The notes under the pieces were generated by a model. That model ran no database searches and was not told the DNA's origin. It saw only the letters and a program-made list of their open reading frames with translations. A DNA stretch of 24,896 nt from an uncultured Candidatus Bathyarchaeia archaeon. Its GTDB lineage: Archaea; Thermoproteota; Bathyarchaeia; TCS64. The stretch lies in contig CAZQOX010000001.1 of assembly GCA_964594895.1 (NCBI GenBank), positions 1 to 24,896 of the forward strand, written 5' to 3'. Made by a program: the position numbers and the translations under genes. This document shows positions 575 to 21,480 of this stretch, piece after piece (position 1 is the stretch's first letter; every line of letters starts with the position of its first letter).

Positions 575-1822
575 CTAGTAGACCTCCAAAGCCGTTTCTC
601 CCTCGGCCTCCTCTGCCTCCCTCTCGCCCGTTAACGGTTTTAACTGTATGGAGCCGAGTACTGTGTTAACGATCTTCCTTCTCCTCTGGTTGTTCAGCTT
701 GGCCACGTTGTCCGCCTGCCACGGTAGCCCTATCTTCGGCGGTTCCATGTCGCGGTACTCCACGAGCGGAGTGAGCGTGTTCGTGATTTCGTAGGCTTCT
801 AGACCCGAGTTCCTGAGCAGGAGAGTGAGGTGGATTATCAGCTCGTTCTTCTCGCCGTGGACGATGAACCTCTCGACGAGGTCCGAGAGGTGGTCGAGCT
901 GCACGTCCGTATGCATGTTCACCTGCTGCAGGTGCCTCCGCCACGTCCCGGTGACGTCCTGCCTGACGAGCGATTCCTCCGCGTAGCGCTTCATGCTTCG
1001 GTAGCTGAGGTAGAACCCTAGGCATATGGCGGCCCACTCCCCGATCACGACGTACTGGGGGTTAAGGCCTGAGGACTCGATGAAGTACCTCCGGACAAAG
1101 AAGAGGTAGTATATCAGGACGAAGTTGAGCAGCGTCACCTTCCCTATCTGGCCGCCGATCCTGCTGCCAAGATACTCTAGGTACGGGTTTGGGTGGTTCT
1201 TGAAGACGCCGGTGAGGGAGAGCACCGCCGTCATGGCGGTGCTAGCGACGATGACGTTGTTCACGGGCTCAGCTAGCCCCGCCTTTATGATTGGCAGCAG
1301 TAGTCCTGAGAAAGGTGAGCCTAGGACCATGTCCTCTAAGAAAGGGTAGACGTTGAGCCAAGTTCGGCTCCCCAGGAACCCTATGAATAATATGTAGATG
1401 CCCGTGAGTATGGGCTCGAAGATGTAGTTGACGTCCCTGACGTATACGCTCAGTACGTCATGGAGAGCCGAGAGCATCGTCGCGTACAACAGGAAGGCTG
1501 CAATGGGCTTCACCCAGCCCGGGACGAGGCTCCAGTCGGCCACAAAGTAGAGGAACGCGGTGTAAGCCACCGTGTTCAGGCCGGCGGATAGCCTATCCGT
1601 CGCCTTCCCGACGAGGAGCTTGTCCGCGACGACGCTGGAGTACTTCATGCATAGGAAAGCTATGAGGGGGGCTCCAAGGAAGGAGAGGTTGAGCGTGATG
1701 TCGTACCCAAGGATGTCCAATGGTATGATGGTCTCCTGCAGCACTAGGAACCATACGGTCACGGTTAGTAACGCGACGTATACTACCGAAGGCAGAACGA
1801 TCTCCTTAACTCTCTTCTCCAT
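575..1822 (-). CDS. Polytopic membrane protein of unknown function with soluble C-terminal domain, in the MoxR/transglutaminase operon
   Basis: 415 aa ORF with about 8-9 hydrophobic segments in the first ~275 aa and a charged C-terminal ~140 aa. Overlaps the upstream gene by 17 bp and abuts moxR. Confidence 0.8.
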   Translation of the reverse strand: MEKRVKEIVLPSVVYVALLTVTVWFLVLQETIIPLDILGYDITLNLSFLGAPLIAFLCMKYSSVVADKLLVGKATDRLSAGLNTVAYTAFLYFVADWSLVPGWVKPIAAFLLYATMLSALHDVLSVYVRDVNYIFEPILTGIYILFIGFLGSRTWLNVYPFLEDMVLGSPFSGLLLPIIKAGLAEPVNNVIVASTAMTAVLSLTGVFKNHPNPYLEYLGSRIGGQIGKVTLLNFVLIYYLFFVRRYFIESSGLNPQYVVIGEWAAICLGFYLSYRSMKRYAEESLVRQDVTGTWRRHLQQVNMHTDVQLDHLSDLVERFIVHGEKNELIIHLTLLLRNSGLEAYEITNTLTPLVEYRDMEPPKIGLPWQADNVAKLNNQRRRKIVNTVLGSIQLKPLTGEREAEEAEGETALEVY

Positions 1823-4800
1823 ATAAAGCCTCCTCGAACTCGTTCTTGGCGAGGTAGAAGCTCTCGTAGCTCTCCCTCGCTATCGGGTGGAGGCTGTAGC
1901 TAGCCTCCTCGAATATGAAGGTCATCTCCCCGAGCGCGCCATGCGTCTCCGCCGGCGTCTGGGTCTTAAGGTAGCCCAAGAGCTCACGCGCAGTGTAGTT
2001 GTCCTTGATCTTGTCGAACCTCTCACGCGCGTCCCTGAACTTGGCGTTGAATAGGCCGATGATCTCCTCACGGTAGTCGACTGTCTTCACGTCGAGCTCG
2101 GTGTTCAGCTCCTCGACGCGGTAACTGGCAGATATCTTCAGGCTCCCAGTCGACGCCTTGATCGTCGTGGTCAAAGCCGAACCCTCTTCACCGGTGTAGA
2201 CCACTCGGGGTTCACCGTCTACCTCCATGTCTACCTGGGCGTTCACTATCGGGTGGCCCTCGACAGTGGTCAACCTCACAGAGATCTCAAGCTCCTCGTC
2301 GACGCCCCAGACGTTGGGGAACGGGGCCCGTATCTGGGGCAGCGAGATGGTCAGCCGGGTCGACCCGGTCTCCGACTCAGCCACGCTCGTAGGCTTCTCC
2401 GGCGGCGCCGCCTCGGTCCCCTTCATACGCATGTAGACTAGGGCGCCTACACACGCGAGGCCGAGGAAAACGGCCGCAGCCTGTAGCACAGGGAAACGTG
2501 TCGGCGTGAGCACCGTCAGAGTGGTCATGGCTGAGGCAGCCGTGTAGAGACCCTCCCCCCGATACGTAGCGGACAACGTCACGGTATTGCCCTCCGGCTC
2601 GGAAAGCTTGAAACTGAACTCCGCCACGCCTGCGTCGTCAGTTGTTGCCGTGAGGTTCCCGGCGAGTTCGCCGCAGCGGTAGAGGAGCGTCAAGGGTTTG
2701 CTCCCCAGAGACTCGCCGTGGTCGTCCCTGAGCACGGCTCTTACGACGTTCTGCCGCCCGGCCTGAACCTCCTGTCTCGACTCGAAGCCGATCTGCGGCC
2801 TCGCCTTCACGACGGCGGAAGCATCTACCCTCTGCTGGTTGCTGTGGAGAGTGAACTCCAGGGGGACATCACCCAGCTCATGGTCGATGGGCGGCCTGTA
2901 GGAGATGAAGAACTCGCCCACCTCGTTAGTCACCGTGGAGATCTCCTTGCCTTCCAGGCGGAGGGTCAGGGCCTCGGAGTCGCCGGGGACCTCGTCGGCG
3001 TGGACCCTGCCCTTGATGACCGAGTTCTCGCCCCGGACCAACGCGATGTCTCTCGTGGGGGTGATGGTGAGGGGAACCGACTCGACGTATGTGCTCGCGG
3101 ATGCCCCGAGATGATACTCAGCGCCCCCGTACGTCATCTTCACCTCGAATGCGCCTGGCTCAGCGAGGAGCACCGTGACTCGAATGCGTCCCTCGCCGTC
3201 GGTGACCCTGTTGTAGGTCTCTGCCCCGGCGGAGACTGTGCACTGGGCTTCGGCGAGGGATCTGCTGGTCTGCTTCTCCACCAGAGTGCAGGATATGTTG
3301 AAGGCTTGACCGGTGACGACCTTCTCGGGCACGTCGATCGTGAACTCGGTCTCCATGTAGCTCACTATCGGCGGATCGCTCCACGAGTCCATGTACACCT
3401 CGTTCCCCAGCGTGTGGGCGTCCACGTTGTACTCTCCCCCCGGGAGACCGACGGGGAAGAGACAGGTGACGTTGAACCTGCTGTCGACAACCACCCCGCG
3501 ACCAGCCAGGGTGCCGTTATCAGATTTCTCCTTCTTCAGGTAGACGAGGACGTCTAGCCCCGAGGCGTCGTTCCCCTGGTCATCCACGACGGTGCCTGCC
3601 ACGGTGAAACGTGAGCCGACGAGGACGTACTCGTCCTGGTACGTGATCGTGGTGTTTGTCGGTGTTCTGTTCGGAGGCTCCTCGGGCGTCCAAGTCTCTC
3701 CGGTGGGCGTCGCGTCGAAGACGATCCACCCGAGGTCGTCGAAGAGAGCCTCCGTGTATGCGTGGGCCTGAGTCGTCTCCACGGACTGGGCCTCGGCGGC
3801 GGGGTCGACCAGGTAACCCGTCACGAGCCGCGCCGGCACGCCTAGGCTCCGGGCGAGCAGAGTCAAAGCCGTGTTGAAGTTGGTGCACACCCCCTGCCTC
3901 TCGCGGAACAGGAACCACTCCACCGGGTCTACGTCGCCTGGAGACCGGGTGTAGGAGAGGTTGTAATGGTAGTTGGTCTTCAGGTGGCTCTCCAGGGTCT
4001 TCACCTTGAGGTACGGCGACTCTACGTTACGGGTGATCTGCTCCGCAAAAGGAGTTATCAGGGTCTCTAGGGTGTCCGGCACCTGTAAATACAATGTGCT
4101 ATTGTAGGGCGTAGCCTTCTCCAGAGTCGTCTCGTTGAACACATAGACCTCTGACTGCACCTCGTAGCTCAAGGCCAAAGGTTCGTCCACGCGGAATAGC
4201 TCGTGCTCGGGGTAGAAAGTCATGTTCCAGTCGACGACGACTTGCAACGGGTGAAGCGGCGAAGGTATGAAGCCGCCAAGGGCCTGAACCGGCTCAACGT
4301 AGTAGTGATGCTCCTGGATGCCGCTGTAGTTGCCTACGACGGATGCCACGTACTGGCCCCAGTACGGGACAGGGGTGGAGCCGTGCATGTACCATGAGCC
4401 GTTGTAGTAGTCGCCGACGCCGTCCCTCAAGTAGGGTGAGCCTGTGGCCCCGTAGATCCTGAATACCTCTTCACCTGTCGTAGGTACCTCGCCTTCGACG
4501 GGTAACTCTCCGCCGTCGTCGATGGAGGGCCCAGGAAGCCCGCCTGTCTCGTTGAAACCTCCGAACTCCTCGATCATGGACAGCAGGTCCGCGCCCGGCG
4601 TGGCGTCGAAGATTATCCAGCCGAGGCCCTCGAAGGGGACCTCGGTGAACGCGTGAGCCTGGATCGGGTAGACGTCTTGTATCGTGGCTTCGGGGTCGAT
4701 GTAGTAACCTCCCACCAGCCTCGCGGTTATGTTCAGGCATCTGGCCATCATGGTGAGAGCCGTGTTGAAGTCGGTGCAGACCCCCTCCCCGCTCTCGTAT

Positions 4801-5573
4801 AGGAACCACTCCAGGGGGTCTACGCCGGGTGGAGCGTCCGGGCAGGTCAGGTTATAGTCGTAGTGGGTCTCAAGGTACTCCTCCAGGGCCCGAAGCTGCA
4901 TGTACGGCGTCGAGGCGTCGCCAACTATCTCCTCGGCAAGCGCCGTGAGGTCGCCCTCGATCTCCTCGGGCACCTCAAGGTAGTCTGGGAGATACATGAC
5001 GTCGCTCACGTTGAGGACTTCGTCGCTGTAGCTGTACTTGATGTAGGTTAGGTTGTATGCGTCGACGCCCGCCTCGCAGCTGAAGACCATCTCGTCGCCG
5101 TAGTAGGTGACCAAGTCGGTGAGGTTAAGACCAATGGTGTTTGGTGCAGTAGGGATATACACGCCCAGATCTGTCAGCGGCTCGACTGTGAAGCTGACCC
5201 GCATGGGTGAGGCGTTAACATAGATGTCGGGCCAGAGAAGCTCACCCGTATAGGCGATGGGGTCTGAAGGCGAGGAGCCCCAGAGCCCGGATAGATACCT
5301 GTCGTAGGCCATGAGCCTCAGGTACTTCGTCCCCGTGGAGCCCCTCACCCGGAAGATGGGGCCGGATTCACCCATCTCTATGTCCGGCTTCTCCAGCTTC
5401 GTTGACTCGGGGTTGGGCGTCGGGGGTGTCTCTGGCTTCAGATTGGGCACGTTGGGCGTCTGAAGCCCCTCCAGGGTAGGAACCTCGCCCAGAGAGTCTA
5501 TGGAGAGGGATAGCAGCAGGACGGATAAAACGATACACGCTAACACGATAACTGTCTTATTTATTCGCTGCAA
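1806..5573 (-). CDS. Large membrane/surface protein: two transglutaminase-like (TgpA-type) modules, Ig-like repeats, C-proximal TM helix and DUF4129-like tail
   Basis: Two Cys-His-Asp sets: GVCTDFNTAL/AHAFTEV/FDATP and GVCTNFNTAL/AHAYTEA/FDATP. N-terminal hydrophobic anchor (VIVLACIVLSVLLLSLSI), Pro-rich linker, TM VLQAAAVFLGLACVGALVYM. Start placed at TTG 5573 (GGTGG upstream); the track's extension to 5744 lies in AT-rich spacer DNA. The exact start is uncertain. Confidence 0.9.
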   Translation of the reverse strand: MQRINKTVIVLACIVLSVLLLSLSIDSLGEVPTLEGLQTPNVPNLKPETPPTPNPESTKLEKPDIEMGESGPIFRVRGSTGTKYLRLMAYDRYLSGLWGSSPSDPIAYTGELLWPDIYVNASPMRVSFTVEPLTDLGVYIPTAPNTIGLNLTDLVTYYGDEMVFSCEAGVDAYNLTYIKYSYSDEVLNVSDVMYLPDYLEVPEEIEGDLTALAEEIVGDASTPYMQLRALEEYLETHYDYNLTCPDAPPGVDPLEWFLYESGEGVCTDFNTALTMMARCLNITARLVGGYYIDPEATIQDVYPIQAHAFTEVPFEGLGWIIFDATPGADLLSMIEEFGGFNETGGLPGPSIDDGGELPVEGEVPTTGEEVFRIYGATGSPYLRDGVGDYYNGSWYMHGSTPVPYWGQYVASVVGNYSGIQEHHYYVEPVQALGGFIPSPLHPLQVVVDWNMTFYPEHELFRVDEPLALSYEVQSEVYVFNETTLEKATPYNSTLYLQVPDTLETLITPFAEQITRNVESPYLKVKTLESHLKTNYHYNLSYTRSPGDVDPVEWFLFRERQGVCTNFNTALTLLARSLGVPARLVTGYLVDPAAEAQSVETTQAHAYTEALFDDLGWIVFDATPTGETWTPEEPPNRTPTNTTITYQDEYVLVGSRFTVAGTVVDDQGNDASGLDVLVYLKKEKSDNGTLAGRGVVVDSRFNVTCLFPVGLPGGEYNVDAHTLGNEVYMDSWSDPPIVSYMETEFTIDVPEKVVTGQAFNISCTLVEKQTSRSLAEAQCTVSAGAETYNRVTDGEGRIRVTVLLAEPGAFEVKMTYGGAEYHLGASASTYVESVPLTITPTRDIALVRGENSVIKGRVHADEVPGDSEALTLRLEGKEISTVTNEVGEFFISYRPPIDHELGDVPLEFTLHSNQQRVDASAVVKARPQIGFESRQEVQAGRQNVVRAVLRDDHGESLGSKPLTLLYRCGELAGNLTATTDDAGVAEFSFKLSEPEGNTVTLSATYRGEGLYTAASAMTTLTVLTPTRFPVLQAAAVFLGLACVGALVYMRMKGTEAAPPEKPTSVAESETGSTRLTISLPQIRAPFPNVWGVDEELEISVRLTTVEGHPIVNAQVDMEVDGEPRVVYTGEEGSALTTTIKASTGSLKISASYRVEELNTELDVKTVDYREEIIGLFNAKFRDARERFDKIKDNYTARELLGYLKTQTPAETHGALGEMTFIFEEASYSLHPIARESYESFYLAKNEFEEALYGEES
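3700..5380 (-). repeat. Internal protein-level duplication of the transglutaminase module (period 297 aa)
   Basis: Catalytic Cys codons at 4776-4778 and 3885-3887 (891 nt apart). Parallel motifs FRV/IxGxTGxxYLR, YxYNL, PGxVDPxEWFL, ARLVxGY, GWIxFDATP. Boundaries are approximate. Confidence 0.85.
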
Positions 5574-5825
5574 ATAGCCCGTCCACCATGATATTCGAAG
5601 GCGAACGCGATATAAGAGTTCTAGATGAATGAAATAGATCAAATTGTTAACGGAGTCGATACTTAGGTGGTATCTTAATGCGCGCACATAGAAATATAAA
5701 GCATAAAAACCTAAAAAAAACGACACGTAATTAACATAAATCAATTAAAAACCTTTGGCATCTTTTAATATTAATAGAAATAAAGGTAATGAAGGCCATG
5801 TTCTATTTACGATAGCAGATAACCC

Positions 5826-5918
5826 AGCATCGGTTCTTGAATAGGACAATGACTGTTAAACTGTACGAAAAACGAACTTTAACATCCACAATACCGTGAA
5901 AAGACCACAACCGATGTT
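5826..5918. promoter_or_regulatory. Nested inverted repeats in the spacer between the divergent transglutaminase and hdr operons (possible structured leader or operator)
   Basis: CATCGGTT (5828-5835) pairs with AACCGATG (5909-5916), enclosing TGTTAAA (5854-5860) / TTTAACA (5878-5884). Function not established. Confidence 0.4.
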
Positions 5919-6020
5919 TGAATTAGAGTGACGTTTCCTCTGGATAGTGGATCATGGTTTAGGGGGTCCATGGGCTCAGGGGTTTCCATTTAATCAATGC
6001 TCGGAGTTGAAGTATGACAG

Positions 6021-6509
6021 ATGATGGCGTTAAATCGTTTATCCTCCAAAGAGAAAAAGTACATGGGTGTGGCGGAGCAGTGCACCCAGTGCGGTAAATG
6101 CTCCAGCGGGTGCCCAGCCGCAAGATACCTTGAGCTGAGACCGCGGAAGATCGCGTTGATGGCACAGAGAGACCTCATCGACGAGCTGCTTGATTCCGAC
6201 GTGATCTGGATGTGCACCCAGTGTCATCAATGCATGGAGAGGTGCCCACGGGAGATCACGCCCTACGACATCATCATATACCTCCAGAACCTGGCGGTGC
6301 TGAGAGGATACGACTACCCCAAGGATCTTAACATGCTCCTCGCCTCCATCAAGAGGTACGGGGCCATCCAGCTGCCCCAGGAGATATTCGACAAGGAATT
6401 CGAGAACTATGAGAGAGAGGACCTTAACCTGCCCGACCTTGAGGGCCCAGCGGACATGGAGGGGTTCCAAAAGGGCTTGACCAAGGTGCTGGAGGAGTCG
6501 AAGCGTTGA
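6021..6509 (+). CDS. hdrC: Heterodisulfide reductase subunit C-like 2[4Fe-4S] protein
   Basis: CTQCGKCSSGCP and WMCTQCHQCMERCP motifs; stop overlaps the start of hdrB (TTGA). Confidence 0.92.
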   Translation: MMALNRLSSKEKKYMGVAEQCTQCGKCSSGCPAARYLELRPRKIALMAQRDLIDELLDSDVIWMCTQCHQCMERCPREITPYDIIIYLQNLAVLRGYDYPKDLNMLLASIKRYGAIQLPQEIFDKEFENYEREDLNLPDLEGPADMEGFQKGLTKVLEESKR

Positions 6510-7384
6510 GGTACGCGCTGTATCTGGGCTGCTGGATACATACTCAGCAGTACGGCTACGAGATGTCCACCAGAAGAACCCTGCCCAGGCTGGGAGTGGA
6601 GCTCCACGACCCCGAGGGCTTCAGCTGCTGCGGCTACCCACTGAGGAGCTTCAACGACTCGGCGTGGTTCTACCTCTCGGCGAGGAACCTCGCGATAGCC
6701 GAGAGGGACGGCCTCGACATACTCCCCCTGTGCAACGGCTGTTACGCCTCGATGAACGAGGTGAAGCACTACCTTGACTCCGACGAGGAGTTCAGGAGCT
6801 ACATCAACGAGGCTCTGAGCAACGAGGGCTTGGAGTACAGAGGAAACAGACGGGTTAGACACATCCTAGAGGTTCTTCACGACGACATCGGAGTCGAGGA
6901 GATAGAGACGGAGATAGAGACGCCGCTGTCGGGGCTATGCTTCGCCACACACTGCGGCTGCCACGCGTTGAGGCCCAGCGACTTCAAGCACACAGACGAC
7001 CCCGAGGACCCCAGGCTGCTGGACGAGGTGACCCATGCCCTGGGCGCTGAGACGCGTTACTACCCAGAGAAGATGGACTGCTGCGGAGCAACCCTGGTGA
7101 TCAGCGACTACGAGACGGCTTTCAAGCTGACAGGCTACAAGATCCAGGCCGTCCAGAGACGAGGCTTCGATGGACTCGTGACCAACTGCCCGTTCTGCTT
7201 CAAGATGTTCGACTCCAGGCAGGACGCCGTTGGCAAGATCATACACGACGAGGGGCTCAGCCTCCCCGTCTTTTACGTTACCCAGCTACTGGGACTCGCC
7301 CTCGGCATGGATGCGTCTGAGCTCGGCCTCGGTTTCAACATGAGCCCTGTAGATAAGGTAATCGAGAAAATTGGAGGAGGCTGA
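6506..7384 (+). CDS. hdrB: Heterodisulfide reductase subunit B-like (two CCG domains)
   Basis: YLGC, SCCG, LCNGC, HCGCH, DCCG, NCPFC: the full cysteine set typical of HdrB non-cubane cluster sites. Confidence 0.95.
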   Translation: MRYALYLGCWIHTQQYGYEMSTRRTLPRLGVELHDPEGFSCCGYPLRSFNDSAWFYLSARNLAIAERDGLDILPLCNGCYASMNEVKHYLDSDEEFRSYINEALSNEGLEYRGNRRVRHILEVLHDDIGVEEIETEIETPLSGLCFATHCGCHALRPSDFKHTDDPEDPRLLDEVTHALGAETRYYPEKMDCCGATLVISDYETAFKLTGYKIQAVQRRGFDGLVTNCPFCFKMFDSRQDAVGKIIHDEGLSLPVFYVTQLLGLALGMDASELGLGFNMSPVDKVIEKIGGG

Positions 7385-7388
7385 GGCG

Positions 7389-8705
7389 ATGGAATCGTCT
7401 GTTGTCGTCATCGGCGGAGGGATAGCCGGCATCCAAGCGTCTCTCGACCTTGCTGACGGCGGCCACAAAGTGTACCTCGTCGAGAAAACGCCGAGCATCG
7501 GAGGCAAGATGGCGCTGCTTGACAAGACCTTCCCGACCCTCGACTGCGCCATCTGCATACTCGCGCCCAAGATGATCGAGGTCTACAGGCACCCCCGCAT
7601 CAGGCTCCTCACCAACTCCGAGGTAACCGAGGTCTCCGGGGAAGCCGGGAACTTCACCGTGAAGGTGACGAGGAAGCCCAGGTACGTCGACGAGGACAAG
7701 TGCATAGGCTGCGGCGTATGCGCCCAGAAGTGCCCCGTAAACGTGCCTGACGAGTACCAGATGGGGCTCAGCGACAGGAAAGCCATCCATCTGCCTTTCC
7801 CGCAGTCGGTGCCACTGGTCTACAGCATCGACCCGGAGCACTGCCTCTACCTGACTCGAGGCGTCTGCAGGATCTGTGAAAAGTTCTGCGAAGCAGGGGC
7901 CATAAATTACGAGCAGAAAGAGGAGGCCCTCGAGATAGAGGCCTCAGGCATAGTCGTGGCCACAGGGCTTGAGCCCTTCGACCCCACCATCATCAACGAG
8001 TATGGGTACAAGAGGTTCAGCGACGTCGTCACCGCCATGGAGTTCGAGCGCATGATAACGGCCACGGGCCCCACCGAGGGGGAGCTACTCCGGCCTTCAA
8101 ACAGCCAGCACCCCCACAGCATCGCCTTCATCCAGTGCGTAGGCTCCAGAAGCCTACGCGAGGGAAACCCCTACTGCTCCGCAGTGTGCTGTATGCACGC
8201 AACGAAGGAGGCGATACTCGCAAAAGAGCACGTCCCAGACGTGGAGGTGACCATCTACTACACAGACCTCAGGGCCTTCGGGAAAGGGTTCAGGGAGTTC
8301 GTCGAGAGAGCCATGAAAGAGTATGGAGTCAAGTACGTCAGGGGTAAGCCGGCGGAGATCAGGGAGGACCCCGACACGAGGAGGCTTCAATTCTGGTACG
8401 AGGACACCCACACCGGCGACACGGGTTTCGCGGAGACGGATATGGTTGTGCTCTGCACGGCCCTCACCCCGAGCCCAGGAAACATGGGTCTCGCCGAGAC
8501 CCTGAAGGTTGATGTGGACGAGTACGGTTTCTTCACCCAGCCGAGGCCCTTGAGAGACCCTGTTGGTACGACTCGTGAAGGCGTCTACGTCTGCGGGTTC
8601 TGCCAAGGCCCTAAGGACATACCCGACTCCATCGCGGAGGCCAGTGGAGCAGCGTCAATGGTTTCGGTCATCGCCAACAAGAACACGGGAGAGACGGAAA
8701 GATGA
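7389..8705 (+). CDS. hdrA: HdrA-like flavoprotein, short form (FAD domain plus inserted ferredoxin; no N-terminal domain, no C-terminal ferredoxin)
   Basis: VIGGGIAG Rossmann motif, LDKTFPTLDCAIC, CIGCGVCAQKCP, CLYLTRGVCRICEKFC, MEFER, QCVGSR, CSAVCCMHATKEA. ATG 7389 preferred over TTG 7371 because GGAGGAGG lies at 7373-7380. Confidence 0.93.
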   Translation: MESSVVVIGGGIAGIQASLDLADGGHKVYLVEKTPSIGGKMALLDKTFPTLDCAICILAPKMIEVYRHPRIRLLTNSEVTEVSGEAGNFTVKVTRKPRYVDEDKCIGCGVCAQKCPVNVPDEYQMGLSDRKAIHLPFPQSVPLVYSIDPEHCLYLTRGVCRICEKFCEAGAINYEQKEEALEIEASGIVVATGLEPFDPTIINEYGYKRFSDVVTAMEFERMITATGPTEGELLRPSNSQHPHSIAFIQCVGSRSLREGNPYCSAVCCMHATKEAILAKEHVPDVEVTIYYTDLRAFGKGFREFVERAMKEYGVKYVRGKPAEIREDPDTRRLQFWYEDTHTGDTGFAETDMVVLCTALTPSPGNMGLAETLKVDVDEYGFFTQPRPLRDPVGTTREGVYVCGFCQGPKDIPDSIAEASGAASMVSVIANKNTGETER

Positions 8706-10858
8706 ACGGAGAAGAGGCCCCGAAGATTGGGGTGTTCCTCTGCCACTGCGGAACCAACATAGCCGGGGTGGTCGACGTACCCAGCGTCGCCGAGTACGCC
8801 CGCAGGATACCTGGGGTATACTACGTAGAGGAGAACCTCCACACCTGCAGCTCCGAGGGCATCAACCACATCAAGGAGGCCATCGAGAGGGAGGGGCTGG
8901 AGAGGGTCGTCGTCGCCGCGTGCACCCCACGAACCCACGAACAGCTGTTCATGGAGGCCGTGGAGGAGGCGGGGCTCAACAGGTACCTCTTCCAGATGGT
9001 CAACGTACGTGAACAAGACTCATGGGTCCACGGGGACAAGGACGCCGCGACGGCGAAAGCAAAACAGCTGGTCCACATGGCGGTGGCGAAGGCAACTTAC
9101 CTAGAGCCCGAGGAGAGGAGAAAGATCGACGTCACACCCACATCCCTCGTGGTGGGGGCCGGCGTGGCCGGGATGACCGCTGCGCTCGCCCTGGCGGAAC
9201 AAGGCTTCCAAGTCATACTAGTAGAGAAGGAGGGCGAGCCCGGAGGCCTAGTGAAGAAACTTTTCGACTTATCTCCCACCAACCAAGACGCAGAGGAGTT
9301 CCTCGCACCCATGATCGACGCGGTGCGAAGCAACGACAACATACAGCTCTTCACGTCATCCAAGGTCGTGGACGTCAGCGGCTTCATAGGCCACTTCAAC
9401 GTCGGCATCAAATCAAACAAGAATCATCTCTCCACCGAGGTGGGAACCATCATCGTAGCCACCGGTGCAGAGGTCTTCACCCCCGACGGATACTATTCCT
9501 ACGGCGAAACCCCCAACATAGTCACACAGCTTGAGCTCGAGGAAAAGCTCCGTGAAGGCTCGTTCAAGGTTCCAGACCATGTGGCTTTCATCCAGTGCGT
9601 CGGCAGCATGGAGGAGAAAGGGAGGACATACTGCTCGAGAATATGCTGCGGCGTGGCGCTTAAGAACGCCATACGGCTGAAGGAGCTCAACCCAGACGCG
9701 GATATCCACATACTCTACAGGGAGCTTCAGGCATACGGGGTCGAGCTGGAGGCGCTGTACAGGGAGGCCCTCAGCAAGGAGGTCAAGTTCATCAACTATG
9801 TCCCGGAGAGGCCGCCGGAGGTATCGGCTCAGAGCGGAGGCATCAATCTGAGTGTCTACGACACGCTTCAGGGATCGGATGTGGAGCTGCAGCCAGGTTT
9901 GGTCGTCCTCTCCACCCCTCTCGTGCAGCACGAGGAGGGGCGAGCCTTGGCTAAGCTGCTGAGGGTCCCACTGGGCTCAGACGGCTTCTTCCTCGAGGCA
10001 CACCCCAAGATGAGGCCCGTCGACTTCTCGTCCGACGGCATCTACCTCTGCGGGACAGCCCACGCACCAAAGAACATCGCGGAAAGCGTCACCCAGGGAT
10101 ACGCCGCGGCTTCACGGGCAGCCATACCCATGAGGCTGGGTGAGATCAGCATAGACGCAGTCAGTGCAGTCCTCGACCCGGAGCTCTGTGTAGGCTGTGG
10201 GGCGTGCGCCAGCGGATGCCCCTTCGACGCCATCGAGTGGATGCCCTCGGGGAAGCCCCACGTGATCGAGGCGGCGTGCAAAGGCTGCGGCGTCTGCACG
10301 GTGGAGTGCCCGGTGGGCGCCATGCAGCTGAGATACTTCAAGGACAAACAGCTTGTGCCCGCCGTCAGAGCCCTCATGCAGCGGACACCAGGGATGAATG
10401 TAGATGACTCATCAAACCCGACTGTGCTGGTTTTCGCGTGCAGGTGGTGCAGCTACGCGGCGGCCGACTACGCGGGTGTGATGAGGCTCAGCTACCCGGC
10501 CAACGTCCGCATACTCATGGTGCCATGTACTGGCAGGGTCGACTTCAGACACATATATGAGGGGTTCAGCAGCGGCGCCGACGGAGTAATAGTGATAGGG
10601 TGCCTCAAGGAGCAGTGCCACTACACAGACGGCAACATAATCGCAGAGAGGAGGGTCGAAGTAGAGAAGAAGGCCATAGAGGTCCTAGGTATTAGCGGCG
10701 ACAGGCTTGAGATGCTCTTCTGCAGCGCAGGAATGCCCAGGGAGTTCGCAGAGTATATGCGGAGCTTCACCGAGAGGATCAAGCGGCTTGGGAAGATCGA
10801 ACGCGAGACGGTCCGAGCGTTCAAGGAGATAGAGGTAGAGGCAGCGGCTGGAGGGTGA
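8702..10858 (+). CDS. hdrA: HdrA-like flavoprotein fused to an MvhD-like [2Fe-2S] domain (N-terminal domain, FAD domain, C-terminal ferredoxin, MvhD)
   Basis: KIGVFLCHCGTNI...HTCS...ACTP; VVGAGVAG; CSRICCGVALKNA; CVGCGACASGCP and CKGCGVCTVECP; C-terminal FACRWCSYAAAD...VPCTGRVD...GCLKEQCHY (MvhD). ATGA overlap with the preceding gene. Confidence 0.93.
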   Translation: MNGEEAPKIGVFLCHCGTNIAGVVDVPSVAEYARRIPGVYYVEENLHTCSSEGINHIKEAIEREGLERVVVAACTPRTHEQLFMEAVEEAGLNRYLFQMVNVREQDSWVHGDKDAATAKAKQLVHMAVAKATYLEPEERRKIDVTPTSLVVGAGVAGMTAALALAEQGFQVILVEKEGEPGGLVKKLFDLSPTNQDAEEFLAPMIDAVRSNDNIQLFTSSKVVDVSGFIGHFNVGIKSNKNHLSTEVGTIIVATGAEVFTPDGYYSYGETPNIVTQLELEEKLREGSFKVPDHVAFIQCVGSMEEKGRTYCSRICCGVALKNAIRLKELNPDADIHILYRELQAYGVELEALYREALSKEVKFINYVPERPPEVSAQSGGINLSVYDTLQGSDVELQPGLVVLSTPLVQHEEGRALAKLLRVPLGSDGFFLEAHPKMRPVDFSSDGIYLCGTAHAPKNIAESVTQGYAAASRAAIPMRLGEISIDAVSAVLDPELCVGCGACASGCPFDAIEWMPSGKPHVIEAACKGCGVCTVECPVGAMQLRYFKDKQLVPAVRALMQRTPGMNVDDSSNPTVLVFACRWCSYAAADYAGVMRLSYPANVRILMVPCTGRVDFRHIYEGFSSGADGVIVIGCLKEQCHYTDGNIIAERRVEVEKKAIEVLGISGDRLEMLFCSAGMPREFAEYMRSFTERIKRLGKIERETVRAFKEIEVEAAAGG

Positions 10859-10862
10859 CGGC

Positions 10863-11684
10863 GTGTACAGGATAACCGAGAAACAGGAGATACAGCCAAA
10901 CATCAACATGTTCAAGGTATACGCACCGGCCGTGTCGAAGAAGGCGGAGCCGGGACAGTTCGTGATCATCAGGAGCAACGAGAGAGGCGAGAGAATGCCG
11001 ATGACTATCGCGGGAACAGAGCCCGACGAAGGAACAGTAACCATATACTTCGCGGAGGTGGGAGCCTCCTCCAAAGAGTTAGGAGCCCTTGGCGAGGGAG
11101 ACGACATACTCAACTTCTCCGGGCCCCTCGGAAACGCGATACCCATCGAAGAGTATGGAAACGTCCTCTGTATCGCTGGAGGAGTGTTTCAGGGAGCCAA
11201 CTACTATCTATCGAAGAGGCTCCACGAGGCAGACAACGAAGTAACCAACGTCATCTGTGTCCCGAGCGAAGACCACTTGTTCCTCTTAGATGAGGTTGAG
11301 AGCGTAAGCAAGAACGTTCTCGTAGCCACCGACGACGCTGCAAACGGAGTCAACCTACCGGAATTACTGGAGAAAGTGTTCAAGGAGACCAGCTTTGACC
11401 GGGTATTCACGTTCGGACCCACCTCCATGCAGAGGCTGGTCGCGGAGACAACGAGGCCGCTGGGTATACCTACCAGAGTGGCCCTCTTCCCGATAATGGT
11501 TGACGGCACAGGGATGTGCGGGGCGTGCAGGGTAACCGTAGGCGGGGCGACGCGGTTCGCCTGCATAGACGGCCCAGAGTTCGACGGCCACCTGGTCGAC
11601 TTCGACGAGCTCATCTCAAGGATGAGGTACTATACCGCCCAGGAGAAGATCGCCATGGTTCTCCATGAGAGGAGGATCGTGTGA
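10863..11684 (+). CDS. nfnA: NfnA/SudB-like FAD/[2Fe-2S] subunit (PyrK family) of an Nfn-type transhydrogenase
   Basis: PGQFVIIR..GERMPMTIA, GPLG, PIMVDGTGMCGACRV...ACIDGPEFDGH. GTG start preceded by GGAGGGTGA. Confidence 0.88.
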   Translation: MYRITEKQEIQPNINMFKVYAPAVSKKAEPGQFVIIRSNERGERMPMTIAGTEPDEGTVTIYFAEVGASSKELGALGEGDDILNFSGPLGNAIPIEEYGNVLCIAGGVFQGANYYLSKRLHEADNEVTNVICVPSEDHLFLLDEVESVSKNVLVATDDAANGVNLPELLEKVFKETSFDRVFTFGPTSMQRLVAETTRPLGIPTRVALFPIMVDGTGMCGACRVTVGGATRFACIDGPEFDGHLVDFDELISRMRYYTAQEKIAMVLHERRIV

Positions 11685-13084
11685 TGGCTTTCGACGTCCC
11701 ACAGGTGGAGATGCCCAAGCAGACGCCGGAGGAGCGTGTGAACAACTTCGACGAGGTCGCGCTCGGCTACACCGAGGAACAGGCCGTCCAGGAGGCGTCC
11801 AGGTGCCTCGGCTGTAAGAACCCCCAGTGCATCAAGGGATGCCCGGTCGACGTCGACATCCCGAGCTTCATAGAGCTCATCAAGACAGAAAAATACGTCG
11901 AGGCAGCCGCCAAGATAAAGGAAACCAACGCCCTGCCAGCCATCTGCGGCCGCGTGTGCCCACAGGAGAACCAGTGCCAGAAACGTTGCGTCCTCGGCGT
12001 AAGAAGTGAACCGGTGGCCATCGGTAGACTTGAGCGGTTCGCCGCAGACTACGAAAGAAAGCATGGAGAACCCTCTAAACCTGTTAAGGGTGAAAGACTT
12101 GGCCGTGTGGCCGTCGTAGGCGCGGGACCCGCAGGGTTAACGGTGACGGCTGACCTCCTGATGAGAGGCTACGATGTGGAGGTTTTCGAGTCCCTCCACG
12201 AAGCAGGCGGAGTACTGATGTATGGCATACCCGAGTTCAGGCTACCCAAGGCGATAGTGCAGGCGGAGGTAGACTACGTCAAGAGCCTAGGGGCAAAGAT
12301 ACACCTCGACGCCACCATAGGCAGACTCCACACAATTTCAGAGCTTTTCGAGAGCGGCTTCCAAGCGGTCTTCATAGGGAGCGGCGCCGGGCTCCCCAGG
12401 TTCCTGAACGTCCCCGGCGAGAACCTCAAGGGGATCTACTCGGCAAACGAGTTCCTGATCAGGACCAACCTGATGAAGGCGTACAGGTTCCCCGAGTACC
12501 GGACCCCCATCACGGTGGGGAGGAACGTGGCGGTCATCGGTGGCGGGAACGTGGCCATGGACTCTGCTCGGTGCGCCAAGAGATTGGGCGCCGAGAACGT
12601 CTACATAGTGTACCGGAGGGGCAGGGAGGAGCTCCCGGCCAGGGAGGAGGAGGTAGAGAACGCCGAGGATGAAGACGTAATATTCAGGCTCTTGAACAAC
12701 CCGGTCAGGTTCATCGGCGACGACAGGGGCTACGTCACAGAAATGGAGTGCATCGGGATGAAGCTGGGGGAGCCGGACGACTCAGGGAGGAGGCGGCCCA
12801 TAGAGGTGGAGGGTTCAGAGTTCCTCATGGAGGTGGACAACGTGGTGGTGGCGATAGGGCAGACCCCCAACCCCTTAATACAGCAGACGACCGAAGGGCT
12901 AGAGGTGACCCGGTGGGGCACCATAGTCACCGACGAGGAGACGATGAAGACGAGCATCGACGCCGTCTACGCCGGCGGAGACGTGGTCAGCGGAGCCGCG
13001 ACTGTGATAAGCGCCATGGGGGCCGGAAGGAGGGCTGCGAGAGCCATCCACGAGTACCTGACCCAATCTCACTCGGCGACGTAA
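11681..13084 (+). CDS. nfnB: NfnB/SudA-like (GltD-family) NADPH-binding flavoprotein with 2[4Fe-4S]
   Basis: NFDEVALGY...EASRCLGC...CIKGCP...CGRVCPQENQC; VVGAGPAG; YGIPEFRLPK; VIGGGNVAMD...YRR; YAGGDVVSGAATVISAMGAG. Start is GTG 11681 or ATG 11684, overlapping the nfnA stop, with GGAGG at 11671-11675. Confidence 0.9.
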   Translation: MMAFDVPQVEMPKQTPEERVNNFDEVALGYTEEQAVQEASRCLGCKNPQCIKGCPVDVDIPSFIELIKTEKYVEAAAKIKETNALPAICGRVCPQENQCQKRCVLGVRSEPVAIGRLERFAADYERKHGEPSKPVKGERLGRVAVVGAGPAGLTVTADLLMRGYDVEVFESLHEAGGVLMYGIPEFRLPKAIVQAEVDYVKSLGAKIHLDATIGRLHTISELFESGFQAVFIGSGAGLPRFLNVPGENLKGIYSANEFLIRTNLMKAYRFPEYRTPITVGRNVAVIGGGNVAMDSARCAKRLGAENVYIVYRRGREELPAREEEVENAEDEDVIFRLLNNPVRFIGDDRGYVTEMECIGMKLGEPDDSGRRRPIEVEGSEFLMEVDNVVVAIGQTPNPLIQQTTEGLEVTRWGTIVTDEETMKTSIDAVYAGGDVVSGAATVISAMGAGRRAARAIHEYLTQSHSAT

Positions 13085-13326
13085 CAGGTCGTCGTGGAAA
13101 TTACACCGTAGAGGTTCCGTATCTTGTTGAGCACTATGTTCTGCAGCTGGTCTATGTCGTCAACTTCTACATCGACGTACATGTCATAGGGTCCGTAGAT
13201 GTAGTGGGCTTCCTTGACGCCCTCTAGGCTTAGTATCTCGTTCTTTAGCATGTTCTCTATCTTGGAGTCCACTCTCAGAAATACCAGAGCTCTGTGAGGG
13301 TCTGGTAGATCAAGCTCGCCTCGCAT
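13069..13326 (-). CDS. Stand-alone Lrp/AsnC ligand-binding (RAM) domain protein, no HTH
   Basis: 85 aa: ALVFLRV...LEGVKEAHYIYGPYDMYVDVE...IRNLYGVISTTT. Its 3' end overlaps the nfnB 3' end by 16 bp. Confidence 0.85.
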   Translation of the reverse strand: MRGELDLPDPHRALVFLRVDSKIENMLKNEILSLEGVKEAHYIYGPYDMYVDVEVDDIDQLQNIVLNKIRNLYGVISTTTCYVAE

Positions 13327-13377
13327 TCTATTACTGGATTAGTTTTCCAGTTATTGGAGCTATTGGAGGCATAAAAG

Positions 13378-13560
13378 TTCGCGTTTCGTACCATCATAGG
13401 AATATAGGGGTGTTCCTCGTAACATGAACGCCGTGAAACCACCCTCGAAACGAGAACTATATATACTATGTTTACTATAATTATTTTAAAAGAGAATGGG
13501 TTCCATATTGCAGAATCGTGTAAACGAGGCTGCATAGTCCAAAACCTCTTTAAACGAGAA
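13378..13560. promoter_or_regulatory. Array of (G/T)AAACGAGAA-like sites in the divergent promoter region of the two Lrp-family genes
   Basis: GAAACGAGAA 13447-13456, TAAAAGAGAA 13487-13496, TAAACGAGGC 13521-13530, TAAACGAGAA 13551-13560, plus an inverted GAAACGCGAA at 13378-13387. Confidence 0.45.
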
Positions 13561-13570
13561 GTGCAAGAAA

Positions 13571-14017
13571 ATGCGGATAGATCGACTTGATCTGCAGATA
13601 CTTCGATCTCTGAGCAGGGACGGCCGCAAGCCGTTCAAGGCAATCGCACGCGAGCTAGACGTCAGCGACGCCACCATAAGGAAACGCGTGAGACGGATGC
13701 AGAAGGAAGAGATAATAAAGCAGTTCCACGTGCTCATCGACTACGACAAGATAGGTAACTTCATCAAGGCTTTCATAGGGCTCAAAGTAAACCCTCAACA
13801 GCTTCAAGAAATAGTGAATGAACTCGAGAACCACCCCGACATCCAGGTCATGTACAGGACCACCGGGGGGTGGGACATCTTCGTCGAAGTCATCTTCAAG
13901 GACATGCAGGAACTCAACTGGTTCATGGAGAAGAAGCTGAGCATCGACGGGATAATAGGCACAGAGGCGAACGTTGTCATCGGCTCATACAAACGGTGCC
14001 CGTGCACAAATATATAG
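13571..14017 (+). CDS. Lrp/AsnC family transcriptional regulator (HTH plus RAM)
   Basis: IDRLDLQILRSLSRDGRKPFKAIARELDVSDATIRKRVRRM (AsnC HTH); YRTTGGWDIFVEV (RAM domain). Confidence 0.95.
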   Translation: MRIDRLDLQILRSLSRDGRKPFKAIARELDVSDATIRKRVRRMQKEEIIKQFHVLIDYDKIGNFIKAFIGLKVNPQQLQEIVNELENHPDIQVMYRTTGGWDIFVEVIFKDMQELNWFMEKKLSIDGIIGTEANVVIGSYKRCPCTNI

Positions 14018-15242: not shown

Positions 15243-16469
15243 TTGGCTGCGGCTTTCATAAGGGAGCTCGGGCGGGTCTGGAGGCGCCAGAAACGTAACT
15301 GGAGGACCGTCGTGACCCGCCAGATCTTCAACAGGTTCTTCAACGAGCTCACCCTCGAGTACGCCAACATCTACATCACCCTCCTCGGCGCCTCACCCGT
15401 GCAGCTGGGCGCGGTCAACAGCGTCTTGGGCGTCGCCCAAGCCCTCATATCCATACCGCTGGGCATCATCCGCGACCGCTTCAACCTCAGGAAGATCTAC
15501 CTCTTCGGCGTCGGCATGCTGGTGTTCGTGCCTCTCCTCTACGCCTTGGCGCCGAGCTGGCAGGTGATATCTCTCGCCATCCTCCTCTCGGGGCTCGGCA
15601 TGATGGTCGGCTCCTGCGTCATCATCTGTGACCTCAGCCTGCCGCACCGGGACAGGGCCACGGGGAAGGCGCTGTGTGAGGGAACCGGCGCCCTGCCGAC
15701 CATACTCGCCCCCACCGGTGCTGCCGTCCTCATCACGTTGTTCGGCGGCATAACCACCCGGGGCATCCGTGACCTGTACTGGATACAGTTCGCCGCCAGG
15801 CTGATGCTCTTCCTCTACGTCTACAGGAACCTCACCGACGTGGAGAGGCCCAACAGCGCGCCGAAGGGACTCGATGTGGCAGCAGAGTTCGGCGAGGTCT
15901 TCAGGCGGGGCACGGCGGTCAAGCGGTGGATTCTCTTCCAGAGCGTCAACACGTTCACGATGACCATGCTCTCCACGTTCAGATACCCATACATCTACGA
16001 CGTCAAAGGCGCCAGCCAGTACATCATAGGCGGCTTCGCCACGGCGACCCTCGTCACGGAAGCCATCTTCAGCACCGTCATAGGCAGGTTCGCAGACAGG
16101 ATGGGGCGGAAGAAGGCCTTCTACATACTCATACCGCTGGTCAGCGCCGCCAACCTCGCATTGATACTTGCGCCCACCCCGGGGTGGCTGCTGCTCGCCG
16201 GGTTCCTCATGGGGTTCAGGATGATCGCCACCTTCAGCTACGGCTCCATGACTCCCGAGCTGGTGCCCCCCGAGTGCCTGGGCCGGTGGCGCGGCCTGAT
16301 AGGCCTCTTCACCGGCCTAGCCAGCATACCAGCCCCCATCATCGGAGGCCTGATATGGGAGCGGCTCGGGCCCCAGTGGGTGTTCATCGCCATAACGGTG
16401 ATAGATCTGCTTGTCAGGACCCCTCTGCTGTACTCCGTCCCCGAGACCTTGAGAATCCGTAAAGAATAG
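15243..16469 (+). CDS. MFS transporter
   Basis: About 12 hydrophobic segments; GIIRDRFNLRK and GRFADRMGRKK MFS motif-A loops. TTG start with TTATAT at about 15207-15212 upstream. Confidence 0.92.
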   Translation: MAAAFIRELGRVWRRQKRNWRTVVTRQIFNRFFNELTLEYANIYITLLGASPVQLGAVNSVLGVAQALISIPLGIIRDRFNLRKIYLFGVGMLVFVPLLYALAPSWQVISLAILLSGLGMMVGSCVIICDLSLPHRDRATGKALCEGTGALPTILAPTGAAVLITLFGGITTRGIRDLYWIQFAARLMLFLYVYRNLTDVERPNSAPKGLDVAAEFGEVFRRGTAVKRWILFQSVNTFTMTMLSTFRYPYIYDVKGASQYIIGGFATATLVTEAIFSTVIGRFADRMGRKKAFYILIPLVSAANLALILAPTPGWLLLAGFLMGFRMIATFSYGSMTPELVPPECLGRWRGLIGLFTGLASIPAPIIGGLIWERLGPQWVFIAITVIDLLVRTPLLYSVPETLRIRKE

Positions 16470-21100: not shown

Positions 21101-21178
21101 AGAACCGCACCCAAATAGACTTGTTACTTGATGTTGTGCCTCGATAAAAACTGGACGCATCTAACGCTGACTGAATAA

Positions 21179-21207: not shown

Positions 21208-21480
21208 ATGGTGAAAGTGGAGGCAAGGGTCATCAGTCAAGAGGGTCACTGCGAAGCCGGGCACAGAGTCGGCGACGAGATAGTGTTCGACTGGGACACC
21301 CACGAGATAGAAGGGAGAATCTGTCTACACGCACTGTACTCGACGCTGCCCAAGATATACGCCTTAGCCCATGGAGCCGACGTAGCCTTCGCGGTGTCAG
21401 ATGACGGGTCCAGGGTTGCGAGGCACGCGTGCCCAGACGGCTACAACCCTGTGATATTCGAGCTCAAGAGGATCGGTTAA
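21208..21480 (+). CDS. TIGR04076-family-like small protein
   Basis: VISQEGHCEAGHRVGD...ICLHAL...ACPDGYNPVIFELKRI, the three-Cys pattern I associate with this family. Confidence 0.78.
   Translation: MVKVEARVISQEGHCEAGHRVGDEIVFDWDTHEIEGRICLHALYSTLPKIYALAHGADVAFAVSDDGSRVARHACPDGYNPVIFELKRIG

Follow-up and report, generated by a model that had tools for sequence, protein, structure and literature searches.

Complexes built on heterodisulfide reductase (Hdr) have been described in several forms, among them cores whose input modules can be exchanged, asymmetric HdrA proteins encoded in tandem, and HdrA proteins that carry a proposed port of the NfnB/GltD type (PMC9012536, PMC12054007, PMC9430772, PMC5861303). 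Modules of the NfnB/GltD type for nicotinamide adenine dinucleotide (phosphate), NAD(P)H, are found fused to HdrA in HdrA9-11 of ANME-1 (ANME, anaerobic methanotrophic archaea), in type III HdrA, including a Bathyarchaeota class, and in the HdrA of Moorella (PMC9012536, PMC12054007, PMC9430772), and tandem complementary HdrA pairs in ANME archaea (Chadwick et al. 2022) have been read as an obligate asymmetric heterodimer (PMC9012536). The subject of the present analysis is an operon of six genes, hdrC, hdrB, short hdrA, long hdrA::mvhD, an nfnA-like gene and nfnB, at positions 6021-13084 of the forward strand of a 24,896-nucleotide stretch of DNA (the window) from an uncultured Candidatus Bathyarchaeia archaeon (contig CAZQOX010000001.1). 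The favoured interpretation of the sequence data, to which a probability of about 0.5 is given, is that the NfnAB-like pair serves an Hdr-type bifurcating complex as its NADP(H) port, HdrA::MvhD standing in the place of NAD.

Genes were called from an open reading frame (ORF) listing together with Pfam and NCBIfam profile scans, and the junctions were read from the DNA letters. The features of the operon are as follows.

5745..6020, forward strand: AT-rich intergenic leader 5' of hdrC, with a GC content of 0.485 (positions 5001-6000) against ~0.59 within the operon; presumed promoter region of the operon.
6021..6509, forward strand: hdrC-like gene, 162 amino acids (aa), two [4Fe-4S] ferredoxin motifs, Pfam Fer4_8/Fer4_9 dicluster, TIGR03290 at 88 bits (cutoff 160).
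6506..7384, forward strand: hdrB-like gene, 292 aa, TTG start, predicted catalytic disulfide-reductase subunit with two CCG domains, TIGR03288 at 264 bits (cutoff 345).
7389..8705, forward strand: short hdrA, 438 aa, ATG start, a thioredoxin-reductase-like domain for flavin adenine dinucleotide (FAD) with an inserted ferredoxin domain and without the N- and C-terminal domains.
8702..10858, forward strand: long hdrA::mvhD, 718 aa, an N-terminal Fe-S domain, an FAD domain without the inserted ferredoxin domain, a C-terminal ferredoxin domain and a fused MvhD.
10415..10795, forward strand: MvhD ([2Fe-2S] adaptor) domain of the long HdrA, aa 572-698, Pfam FlpD PF02662 at aa 575-697, E = 7.6e-45.
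10863..11684, forward strand: nfnA-like small subunit, 273 aa, NfnA/PyrK family, NF004862 at 332 bits (cutoff 220).
11187-11189, forward strand: NfnA F109, replacing the second Gly of the NAD(H) loop.
11487-11489, forward strand: NfnA F209, replacing Asn218 of NfnI, the residue over the small-subunit flavin (His220 in NfnII).
11681..13084, forward strand: nfnB large subunit, 467 aa, NfnB/GltD family, with an NADPH site, a bifurcating-type FAD and two [4Fe-4S] clusters, TIGR01316 at 587 bits (cutoff 472).

The six genes follow one another with overlaps or gaps of 4 nucleotides (nt). At the hdrC/hdrB junction (GCGTTGAGG) the TTG start of hdrB lies on the hdrC stop in a TTGA overlap. The hdrB and short hdrA genes (GGAGGAGGCTGAGGCGATG) are separated by a 4-nt gap, and the start of the latter, for which the ORF listing gives an alternative upstream TTG at 7371, is preceded by a strong Shine-Dalgarno sequence, GGAGGAGG. 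The two hdrA genes share an ATGA overlap (AAGATGAAC), hdrA::mvhD and nfnA are joined across a 4-nt gap (GGAGGGTGACGGCGTG) with the Shine-Dalgarno sequence GGAGGG before nfnA, and the nfnA/nfnB junction (GGAGGATCGTGTGATGG) reads as GTGA or TGATG. A GGAGG-like motif was found 6-11 nt 5' of every internal start. Pfam scans of the other large window ORFs tested detected no hydrogenase, formate dehydrogenase, FrhB, FlxBC or Mcr, and across the operon and those window ORFs no input module other than nfnAB was seen in the operon. An earlier, sequence-only reading of this DNA had called the same genes as a translationally coupled operon free of hydrogenase, fdh, floxBC and frhB genes, in a window devoid of methanogenesis genes; the calls and the coupling agree with the Pfam and NCBIfam matches and with the junctions, the lack of other input modules with the Pfam scans, and no Mcr was present among the ORFs scanned. 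Bacterial promoter and terminator models, which are uninformative for an archaeon, returned no promoter-like sites, and terminator-like sites at or below the shuffled level; none of the RNA runs searched holds the operon region. The DNA runs with operon sequence are salt-marsh and soil metagenomes, and those of the best homologues of HdrA::MvhD and NfnA that bear a name belong to Bathyarchaeota/Bathyarchaeia.

The last two genes encode proteins closest to NfnAB. NfnB aligns over its whole length with Thermotoga maritima NfnB (4ylf_B, 563 bits) and Pyrococcus furiosus NfnI-L (5jca_L, 519 bits), and it keeps the motifs RCx2Cx4Cx3CPV, GRVCPQExQCx3C, EFRLP (with the flavin-contacting Arg) and YRR (NADPH site), the cluster motifs of Nfn being used here as the criterion (PMC6405883). 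NfnA likewise aligns at full length with P. furiosus NfnI-S (5jca_S) and T. maritima NfnA (4ylf_A), at 252 bits. Its FAD motif RxPxT (GERMPMT) and the Asp/Cys3 ligands of its [2Fe-2S] cluster, DGTGMCGACR..FAC (MVDGTGMCGACR...FAC), are conserved, and both the FAD and the [2Fe-2S] ligand motifs are invariant in 23 members of the clade. The nicotinamide loop, on the other hand, reads IAGGVFQGANYY in the window; its counterparts are VGGGVGIATLYP (T. maritima) and IGGGVGVAEIYP (P. furiosus). The canonical GGGVGxA..YP has become GGGV[F/M/Y]xGA..Y, its terminal Pro gone, in 120/120 of the best 120 NfnA homologues; the position of the second Gly is occupied by F in 97 of these, by M in 21, by Y in 2 and by Gly in none. 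Conservation of F209 within the altered clade is at least 90%, whereas canonical NfnA keeps Asn in the metagenome sample.

Because the changed positions are ones that, in the ferredoxin-reductase-like family, contact the pyrophosphate and the nicotinamide of NAD(P)H, we infer that the NAD(H) site of NfnA is not functional. Loss of the NAD(H) signature with retention of the FAD and the [2Fe-2S] cluster is as expected if a protein partner had replaced NAD. Judged at the motif level, the NADPH, FAD and [4Fe-4S] features of canonical NfnB and the FAD and [2Fe-2S] features of canonical NfnA are present, and the NAD(H) site is not. As far as motifs can tell, the pair falls outside a strictly defined NfnAB family, one of whose defining features, the NAD site, is missing. 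Like NfnAB/NfnSL (4YLF, 5JCA), both subunits align at full length and all NfnB motifs are kept; unlike them, the operon pair has F109 and F209 instead of the NAD(H) loop and Asn, and its genes are coupled to hdrA::mvhD rather than free-standing. The assumption of the sequence-only reading that a normal NfnAB is encoded here did not hold, since the NAD-site signature is lost, as in NfnII of P. furiosus.

The Hdr part of the operon encodes two HdrA proteins. The short HdrA aligns only to residues ~142-570 of classical HdrA (8rvv_A, 5odc_A; 489 bits) and keeps an equivalent of Cys197 in the motif TFPTLDCAIC. The long HdrA, aligned with 8rvu_a, skips classical residues 247-322, which form the inserted ferredoxin domain, and has LSPTNQDAEEF in place of the Cys197 motif, and its N-terminal Fe-S domain is present. 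The HdrA domains are thus split over two genes, and a single four-domain HdrA of the symmetric homodimer type was not found. By the criterion for tandem HdrA (PMC9012536), the N-terminal Fe-S domain lies in the long copy and the Cys197 ligand in the short copy. Both copies keep residues at the positions of the Glu and Lys that are reported as characteristic of bifurcating flavins in HdrA (PMC9430772), although the residue mapping is approximate. The short HdrA and the long HdrA::MvhD are complementary halves, and on this evidence they should form an asymmetric heterodimer. HdrA5/6 and HdrA12/13 of ANME archaea are similar in being a complementary tandem pair; the pair in the operon differs from them in being split also with respect to the two ferredoxin domains, and the ANME tandem-HdrA clusters contain HdrBC, MvhD, HdrD-like and FdhAB-like genes and no separate NfnAB pair (PMC9012536).

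The fused MvhD domain matches the MvhD chains 9sfi_K, 9sw2_D and 5odc_D, and all of its cysteines C580, C583, C609, C634 and C639 are shared without change by 10 homologues. HdrB gave a full-length alignment with methanogen HdrB (5odc_B, 238 bits), in which both Cx(n)CCx(n)CxxC motifs are intact; the two complete CCG motifs (non-cubane [4Fe-4S] sites) are present and every motif cysteine aligns with 5odc_B. Orthologues of hdrC stand at the same position in loci L001, L004, L008 and L173 (locus numbers as in the list below). All Hdr subunits score below the equivalog cutoffs of the curated coenzyme B-coenzyme M (CoB-CoM) heterodisulfide reductase, the two HdrA proteins reaching 454 (short) and 430 bits (long) with NF041778 (cutoff 1400). 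The fold and the set of cofactors match Hdr, and membership of the methanogen CoB-CoM enzyme is not established by these scores; nor does the 24.9-kb window contain a gene for the synthesis of CoM or CoB.

The order of the six genes recurs on independent contigs with HdrA identities of 53-70%, and this recurrence is far beyond chance. Genome-collection and metagenome scans are samples, not censuses, and locus counts given here are counts among the matches listed. Linkage of hdrA::mvhD with nfnAB was found in at least 12 distinct Bathyarchaeia loci, in five or six architectures.

L001/L002 and L008-L010: the same six genes.
L004/L005: the six genes, with a glutamate dehydrogenase gene inserted before nfnA at 12322-13668.
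L006/L007: a thioredoxin-reductase-like gene, short hdrA, hdrA::mvhD and nfnAB; no hdrCB.
L012 and L099: short hdrA, hdrA::mvhD and nfnAB; no hdrCB.
L003: hdrA::mvhD and nfnAB alone, with nfnB cut short beside an integrase.
L173/L174: the six genes, the short HdrA with an NfnB-like insertion.
L091/L092: [NiFe]-hydrogenase, two hdrA::mvhD, glutamate dehydrogenase, then nfnAB. The hydrogenase-hdrA genes are at 1-5030; the glutamate dehydrogenase gene (ELFV_dehydrog), between hdrA::mvhD and nfnAB, is at 5195-6541 in L091 and at 5190-6536 in L092.
L095: the arrangement of L091/L092, as deduced from spacing.
L175 and L094: [NiFe]-hydrogenase and two hdrA::mvhD, the set convergent with nfnAB. In L175 the hydrogenase-hdrA genes are at 4407-10536, reverse strand.

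The adjacency of hdrA::mvhD and nfnAB, for which the sequence-only reading had asked a synteny search, is therefore conserved in relatives in several architectures. The unit that it had proposed, hdrCBA-mvhD-nfnAB, stands in part: the core of short HdrA, HdrA::MvhD and NfnAB is kept, and hdrCB is absent from several of the related loci. The junction of hdrA::mvhD and nfnA is a gap of 0-4 nt or an overlap in seven lineages (the window, L001, L003, L006, L008, L012 and L173). In the hydrogenase loci the gene for the [NiFe]-hydrogenase large subunit lies directly 5' of two full-length hdrA::mvhD genes (750-804 aa), hdrBC is lacking, and an altered nfnAB pair is near. The genome of the six-gene locus L001 appears to have such an Mvh - HdrA::MvhD x2 locus on the same contig, as P0013, P0133 and P0179 share a longest contig of 153,067 nt, although L001 and L091 were read from different Logan assemblies; the hydrogenase of the latter locus has its own MvhD partners.

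The altered NfnA and the linkage to hdrA::mvhD go together. With motif classes of 33 loci read from the alignment, 12/14 of the loci with a non-Gly NfnA and informative flanks were linked to hdrA::mvhD among the matches listed, and 0/27 of the canonical Gly-type NfnA loci whose upstream sequence extended for 3 kb or more stood beside it; two of these 27 were near HdrL-like genes without MvhD. A hypergeometric test, computed by hand on these sampled loci and ignoring relatedness, gave P ~1e-8. The association between the NfnA motif and hdrA::mvhD is not accidental, and the P value shows no more than this.

Outside Bathyarchaeia, tandem short/long hdrA pairs are common and none among the matches listed (L013-L090) has nfnA beside it. 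These loci include adjacent or fused short/long-HdrA(::MvhD)-like regions in Desulfobacterales, Chloroflexota, Aminicenantes, Thermoplasmata, Asgard archaea and other groups, and in many of them an NfnB-like ORF (35-45% identity) lies immediately 5' of these regions, in an HdrL-like arrangement. Two of the Bathyarchaeia loci show individual features. In L006/L007 (7633-8568) a gene for a 311-aa thioredoxin-reductase-like flavoprotein occupies the place of hdrCB upstream of short hdrA, and the flavoprotein may be an alternative high-potential partner. In L003 (12958-15051), which is from a 1.1-Mb Bathyarchaeota chromosome (CP070786.1), a truncated nfnB of 312 aa has a gene of the phage-integrase family behind it; the operon looks to have been disrupted by insertion.

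In its features the operon resembles an Hdr complex whose input comes from a nicotinamide module. It shares with the HdrA-NfnB/GltD fusions (ANME-1 HdrA9-11, type III HdrA and the MetFV-HdrABC-MvhD of Moorella thermoacetica) a module of the NfnB/GltD type as the proposed nicotinamide port, but NfnB is a separate protein here, there is in addition an NfnA with FAD and a [2Fe-2S] cluster, which the fusions lack, and contact is probably made through MvhD, not through the inserted ferredoxin domain. The HdrA proteins of the window carry no NfnB/GltD-like insertion, whereas the relative L173 does have one. In this relative the short-HdrA orthologue (L173 4139-6847, L174 1430-4138) is 902 aa long and 58-62% identical to the short HdrA of the window, and an NfnB-like insertion of ~430 aa, located within the inserted ferredoxin domain of this protein, shares 44% identity with NfnB of the window. 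L173/L174 thereby share the published 'type III' feature, and with separate nfnA and nfnB genes still downstream their operon holds two NfnB-type modules.

An Hdr that depends on NADH, the FlxABCD-HdrABC of Desulfovibrio, was reportedly described by Ramos and colleagues in 2015. That system is similar to the operon in connecting a flavoprotein module of the NfnA/PyrK family, via an MvhD-type protein, to HdrABC. It differs in that FlxB and FlxC are absent from the operon, that the nicotinamide site would be on NfnB (for NADPH) and not on NfnA, and that MvhD is fused to HdrA; the operon contains no extra Fe-S subunit genes, and the nicotinamide loop of its NfnA is degenerate. Searches of the open-access literature gave no description of separate nfnA and nfnB genes coupled to hdrA::mvhD, nor of a clade-wide loss of the NfnA NAD signature, although such absence is no proof. 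The question of novelty, which the sequence-only reading had left undecided, falls into two parts: entry of NAD(P)H into Hdr through an NfnB/GltD module is already published in the form of fusions, and the arrangement with separate nfnAB genes was not found in that literature.

In the proposed port arrangement, the six gene products would constitute one cytoplasmic iron-sulfur flavoprotein system joining the pools of NADP(H), ferredoxin and a disulfide/dithiol couple. The HdrA heterodimer would have a single exit on the ferredoxin side, namely the inserted ferredoxin domain of the short HdrA; a single N-terminal cluster in the long HdrA, completed by the Cys197 equivalent of the short subunit; and a single input arm made of the C-terminal ferredoxin domain and the MvhD of the long HdrA. 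HdrC and HdrB, in which all cluster motifs are present, would be the disulfide-reducing arm. The NfnAB-like pair would dock on the one MvhD, where Mvh hydrogenase, formate dehydrogenase or Flx sits in other systems, and HdrA::MvhD would replace NAD+ as the partner of the NfnA flavin. The net reaction would be 2 NADPH + oxidised ferredoxin + RS-SR <-> 2 NADP+ + reduced ferredoxin + 2 RSH, which at standard potentials of ~-320, -500 and -140 mV is roughly isoenergetic and would therefore be reversible. In a peptide-fermenting Bathyarchaeon the forward reaction could dispose of the NADPH formed by glutamate dehydrogenase, and the reverse reaction could supply NADPH from reduced ferredoxin and thiol. 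In the hydrogenase-linked paralogues, with no hdrBC and with two MvhD, the same port could connect H2, NADP+ and ferredoxin. It is put forward more tentatively that HdrA::MvhD is the physiological partner replacing NAD+, and that the whole forms a supercomplex of two bifurcating modules which couples NADPH to ferredoxin and disulfide, or to H2 in the hydrogenase-linked paralogues.

Several points weigh against the proposed port. The loss of NAD binding by NfnA is read from motifs only. Two bifurcations strictly in series would be thermodynamically unfavourable, as estimated from standard potentials. In L004, L091 and L175 nfnAB is split from hdrA::mvhD by glutamate dehydrogenase or other genes, or is convergent with it, an arrangement that would fit a functional neighbourhood as well as a stoichiometric complex, and two loci with a non-Gly NfnA, L098 and L100, have no hdrA::mvhD nearby. 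Finally, there is the precedent of P. furiosus NfnII, the Nfn paralogue used more during peptide growth (PMC12506544, PMC12221290), in which a 2025 kinetic study found the NAD site dead, the small subunit electronically isolated and the enzyme a monofunctional, non-bifurcating ferredoxin:NADP+ reductase (PMC12506544).

Some of these observations lend support to the main rival, a serious one, which we regard as possible but less likely: that the nfnAB pair is a free, NfnII-like, non-bifurcating ferredoxin:NADP+ oxidoreductase, co-regulated with Hdr and often with glutamate dehydrogenase, and that electrons pass between the two through soluble ferredoxin. The NfnA of the operon has lost its NAD(H) signature as NfnII-S has; glutamate dehydrogenase, which is no subunit of a complex, is encoded within the cluster or next to it in L004/L005 and L091/L092; and nfnAB is convergent to the hydrogenase-hdrA genes in L094 as well as in L175. 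The small subunit of NfnII ('Xfn') cannot use NAD(H). The site is changed by different means, however. NfnII blocks it by an extra loop, an Arg and His220, whereas the Bathyarchaeia clade shows Gly-to-Phe/Met and Asn-to-Phe/Ile/Met replacements and no loop; aligned with 5vj7_B, the window NfnA lacks the insertions specific to NfnII and has the bulky aromatic F209 at the His220/Asn218 position. Further, no Hdr partner is reported for NfnII in the literature compared. A free enzyme would also leave the single MvhD without a nearby-encoded partner, and it accounts poorly for the tight hdrA::mvhD/nfnA junctions kept in the seven lineages, for the invariance of the FAD and [2Fe-2S] ligands of NfnA across the clade, and for the lack of any canonical NfnAB, which act on the same pools, beside hdrA::mvhD among the 27 sampled loci. 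The claim of the sequence-only reading that NfnAB takes the place of the electron-input module is thus favoured by the conserved adjacency, by the lack of another module in the operon and by the lost NAD signature, and it has to be weighed against this NfnII-like free enzyme.

It could also be that Hdr is fed by coenzyme F420H2 directly at HdrA::MvhD, in the manner of Methanosarcina HdrA2B2C2, or by H2 through an MvhAG encoded elsewhere, with nfnAB as a passenger; this is improbable. HdrA::MvhD has the domain arrangement of HdrA2, and the best NCBIfam match of the long HdrA is the HdrA2 model NF040770. The F420H2-dependent HdrA2B2C2 of Methanosarcina acetivorans is also similar in that its HdrA::MvhD fusion is encoded with hdrB and hdrC. 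The score, though, is 697 bits, far below the cutoff of 1100, and M. acetivorans HdrA2 is one complete protein where the operon has two complementary parts, and this window is without methanogenesis genes; membership of HdrA2B2C2 was therefore rejected on both score and domain architecture. As for H2, the [NiFe]-hydrogenase large subunit directly precedes the HdrA::MvhD genes in the paralogous loci, so that MvhD domains of this lineage can serve a hydrogenase. Yet two MvhD domains are already present in those hydrogenase loci, where nfnAB has nevertheless been retained nearby, and a passenger pair would be expected neither to stay linked across five or six architectures nor to carry a clade-specific change of the NAD site. 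Of the earlier view of the MvhD partner, the genomic linkage of nfnAB to hdrA::mvhD is upheld, with the qualification set by the hydrogenases of the paralogous loci.

The names 'GltA' and 'SudAB' are older assignments of enzymes that are now regarded as Nfn. A last reading, in which the final two genes would be a glutamate synthase small-subunit system or a sulfide dehydrogenase (SudAB) of nitrogen or polysulfide metabolism, deserves very little credence and was rejected: TIGR01316 ('NADPH-dependent glutamate synthase') is matched above its cutoff, 'sulfide/dihydroorotate dehydrogenase-like' is among the names given in databases, Lrp/RAM genes lie nearby, as do those of glutamate dehydrogenase or glutamine synthetase, the Lrp/RAM regulators and glutamate dehydrogenase being on this reading the sign of a nitrogen-assimilation operon, and a study of Lake Towuti tied sud and hdr genes of Bathyarchaeia to polysulfide cycling (PMC11631310), but no GltB-type gene (amidotransferase/flavin mononucleotide) is present in the window or in the related loci inspected, and NfnAB structures are by far the closest, at 519-563 bits against 280-288 bits for GltD.

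The surroundings of the operon contain genes of possible regulatory function and others of a peptide-degrading character.

13069..13326, reverse strand: stand-alone RAM (Lrp/AsnC ligand-binding) domain gene, PF01037 E = 9.6e-12, convergent with nfnB, whose 3' end it overlaps by 16 nt.
13571..14017, forward strand: full-length Lrp/AsnC-type regulator, HTH_AsnC-type and AsnC_trans_reg domains.
1806-5744, reverse strand: giant surface protein, 1312 aa, with two transglutaminase-core domains and immunoglobulin-like repeats.
17863-19278, reverse strand: Pab87-type beta-lactamase-fold peptidase with octamerisation domain.
22742-23248, reverse strand: DJ-1/PfpI protein.
15243-16469; 19871-21160 (reverse strand); and 21477-22679 (reverse strand): three MFS transporter paralogues.

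Further genes of the window encode MscL, a CBS protein and a PNPOx-like protein; taken together, these context genes seem to suit a peptide-degrading lifestyle. The RAM gene is found at the same position in L001, L008-L010 and L173/L174, with overlaps of 4-12 nt in L001 and L008, and RAM genes are also near nfnB in L175. An Lrp gene stands 3' of the operon in L001 and L173/L174, and in L003 it lies 3-4 kb upstream of hdrA::mvhD. The Lrp/AsnC gene of the window is a candidate for an amino-acid-responsive regulator of the operon, and the recurrence of RAM and Lrp genes suggests that control of this kind operates on it. The recurrent glutamate dehydrogenase points to a link with NADPH-dependent glutamate metabolism, and glutamine synthetase and asparagine synthase genes are located upstream in L003. 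Glutamate dehydrogenase and the downstream RAM/Lrp genes together point to amino-acid metabolism as the physiological context of the operon.

The altered NfnA has a practical use, in that GGGV[F/M] together with a Phe over the flavin could serve as a sequence marker by which annotators separate this clade from true NfnA. If the proposed port is correct, it would add a new input/output module to the Hdr toolkit, beside Mvh, Fdh, Flx, MetFV and F420. It would also provide a concrete case in which an enzyme of the Nfn type has exchanged NAD for a protein partner, an idea that was raised and then dropped for NfnII of P. furiosus. For non-methanogenic archaea, it would mean a route from NADPH derived from amino acids to low-potential ferredoxin.

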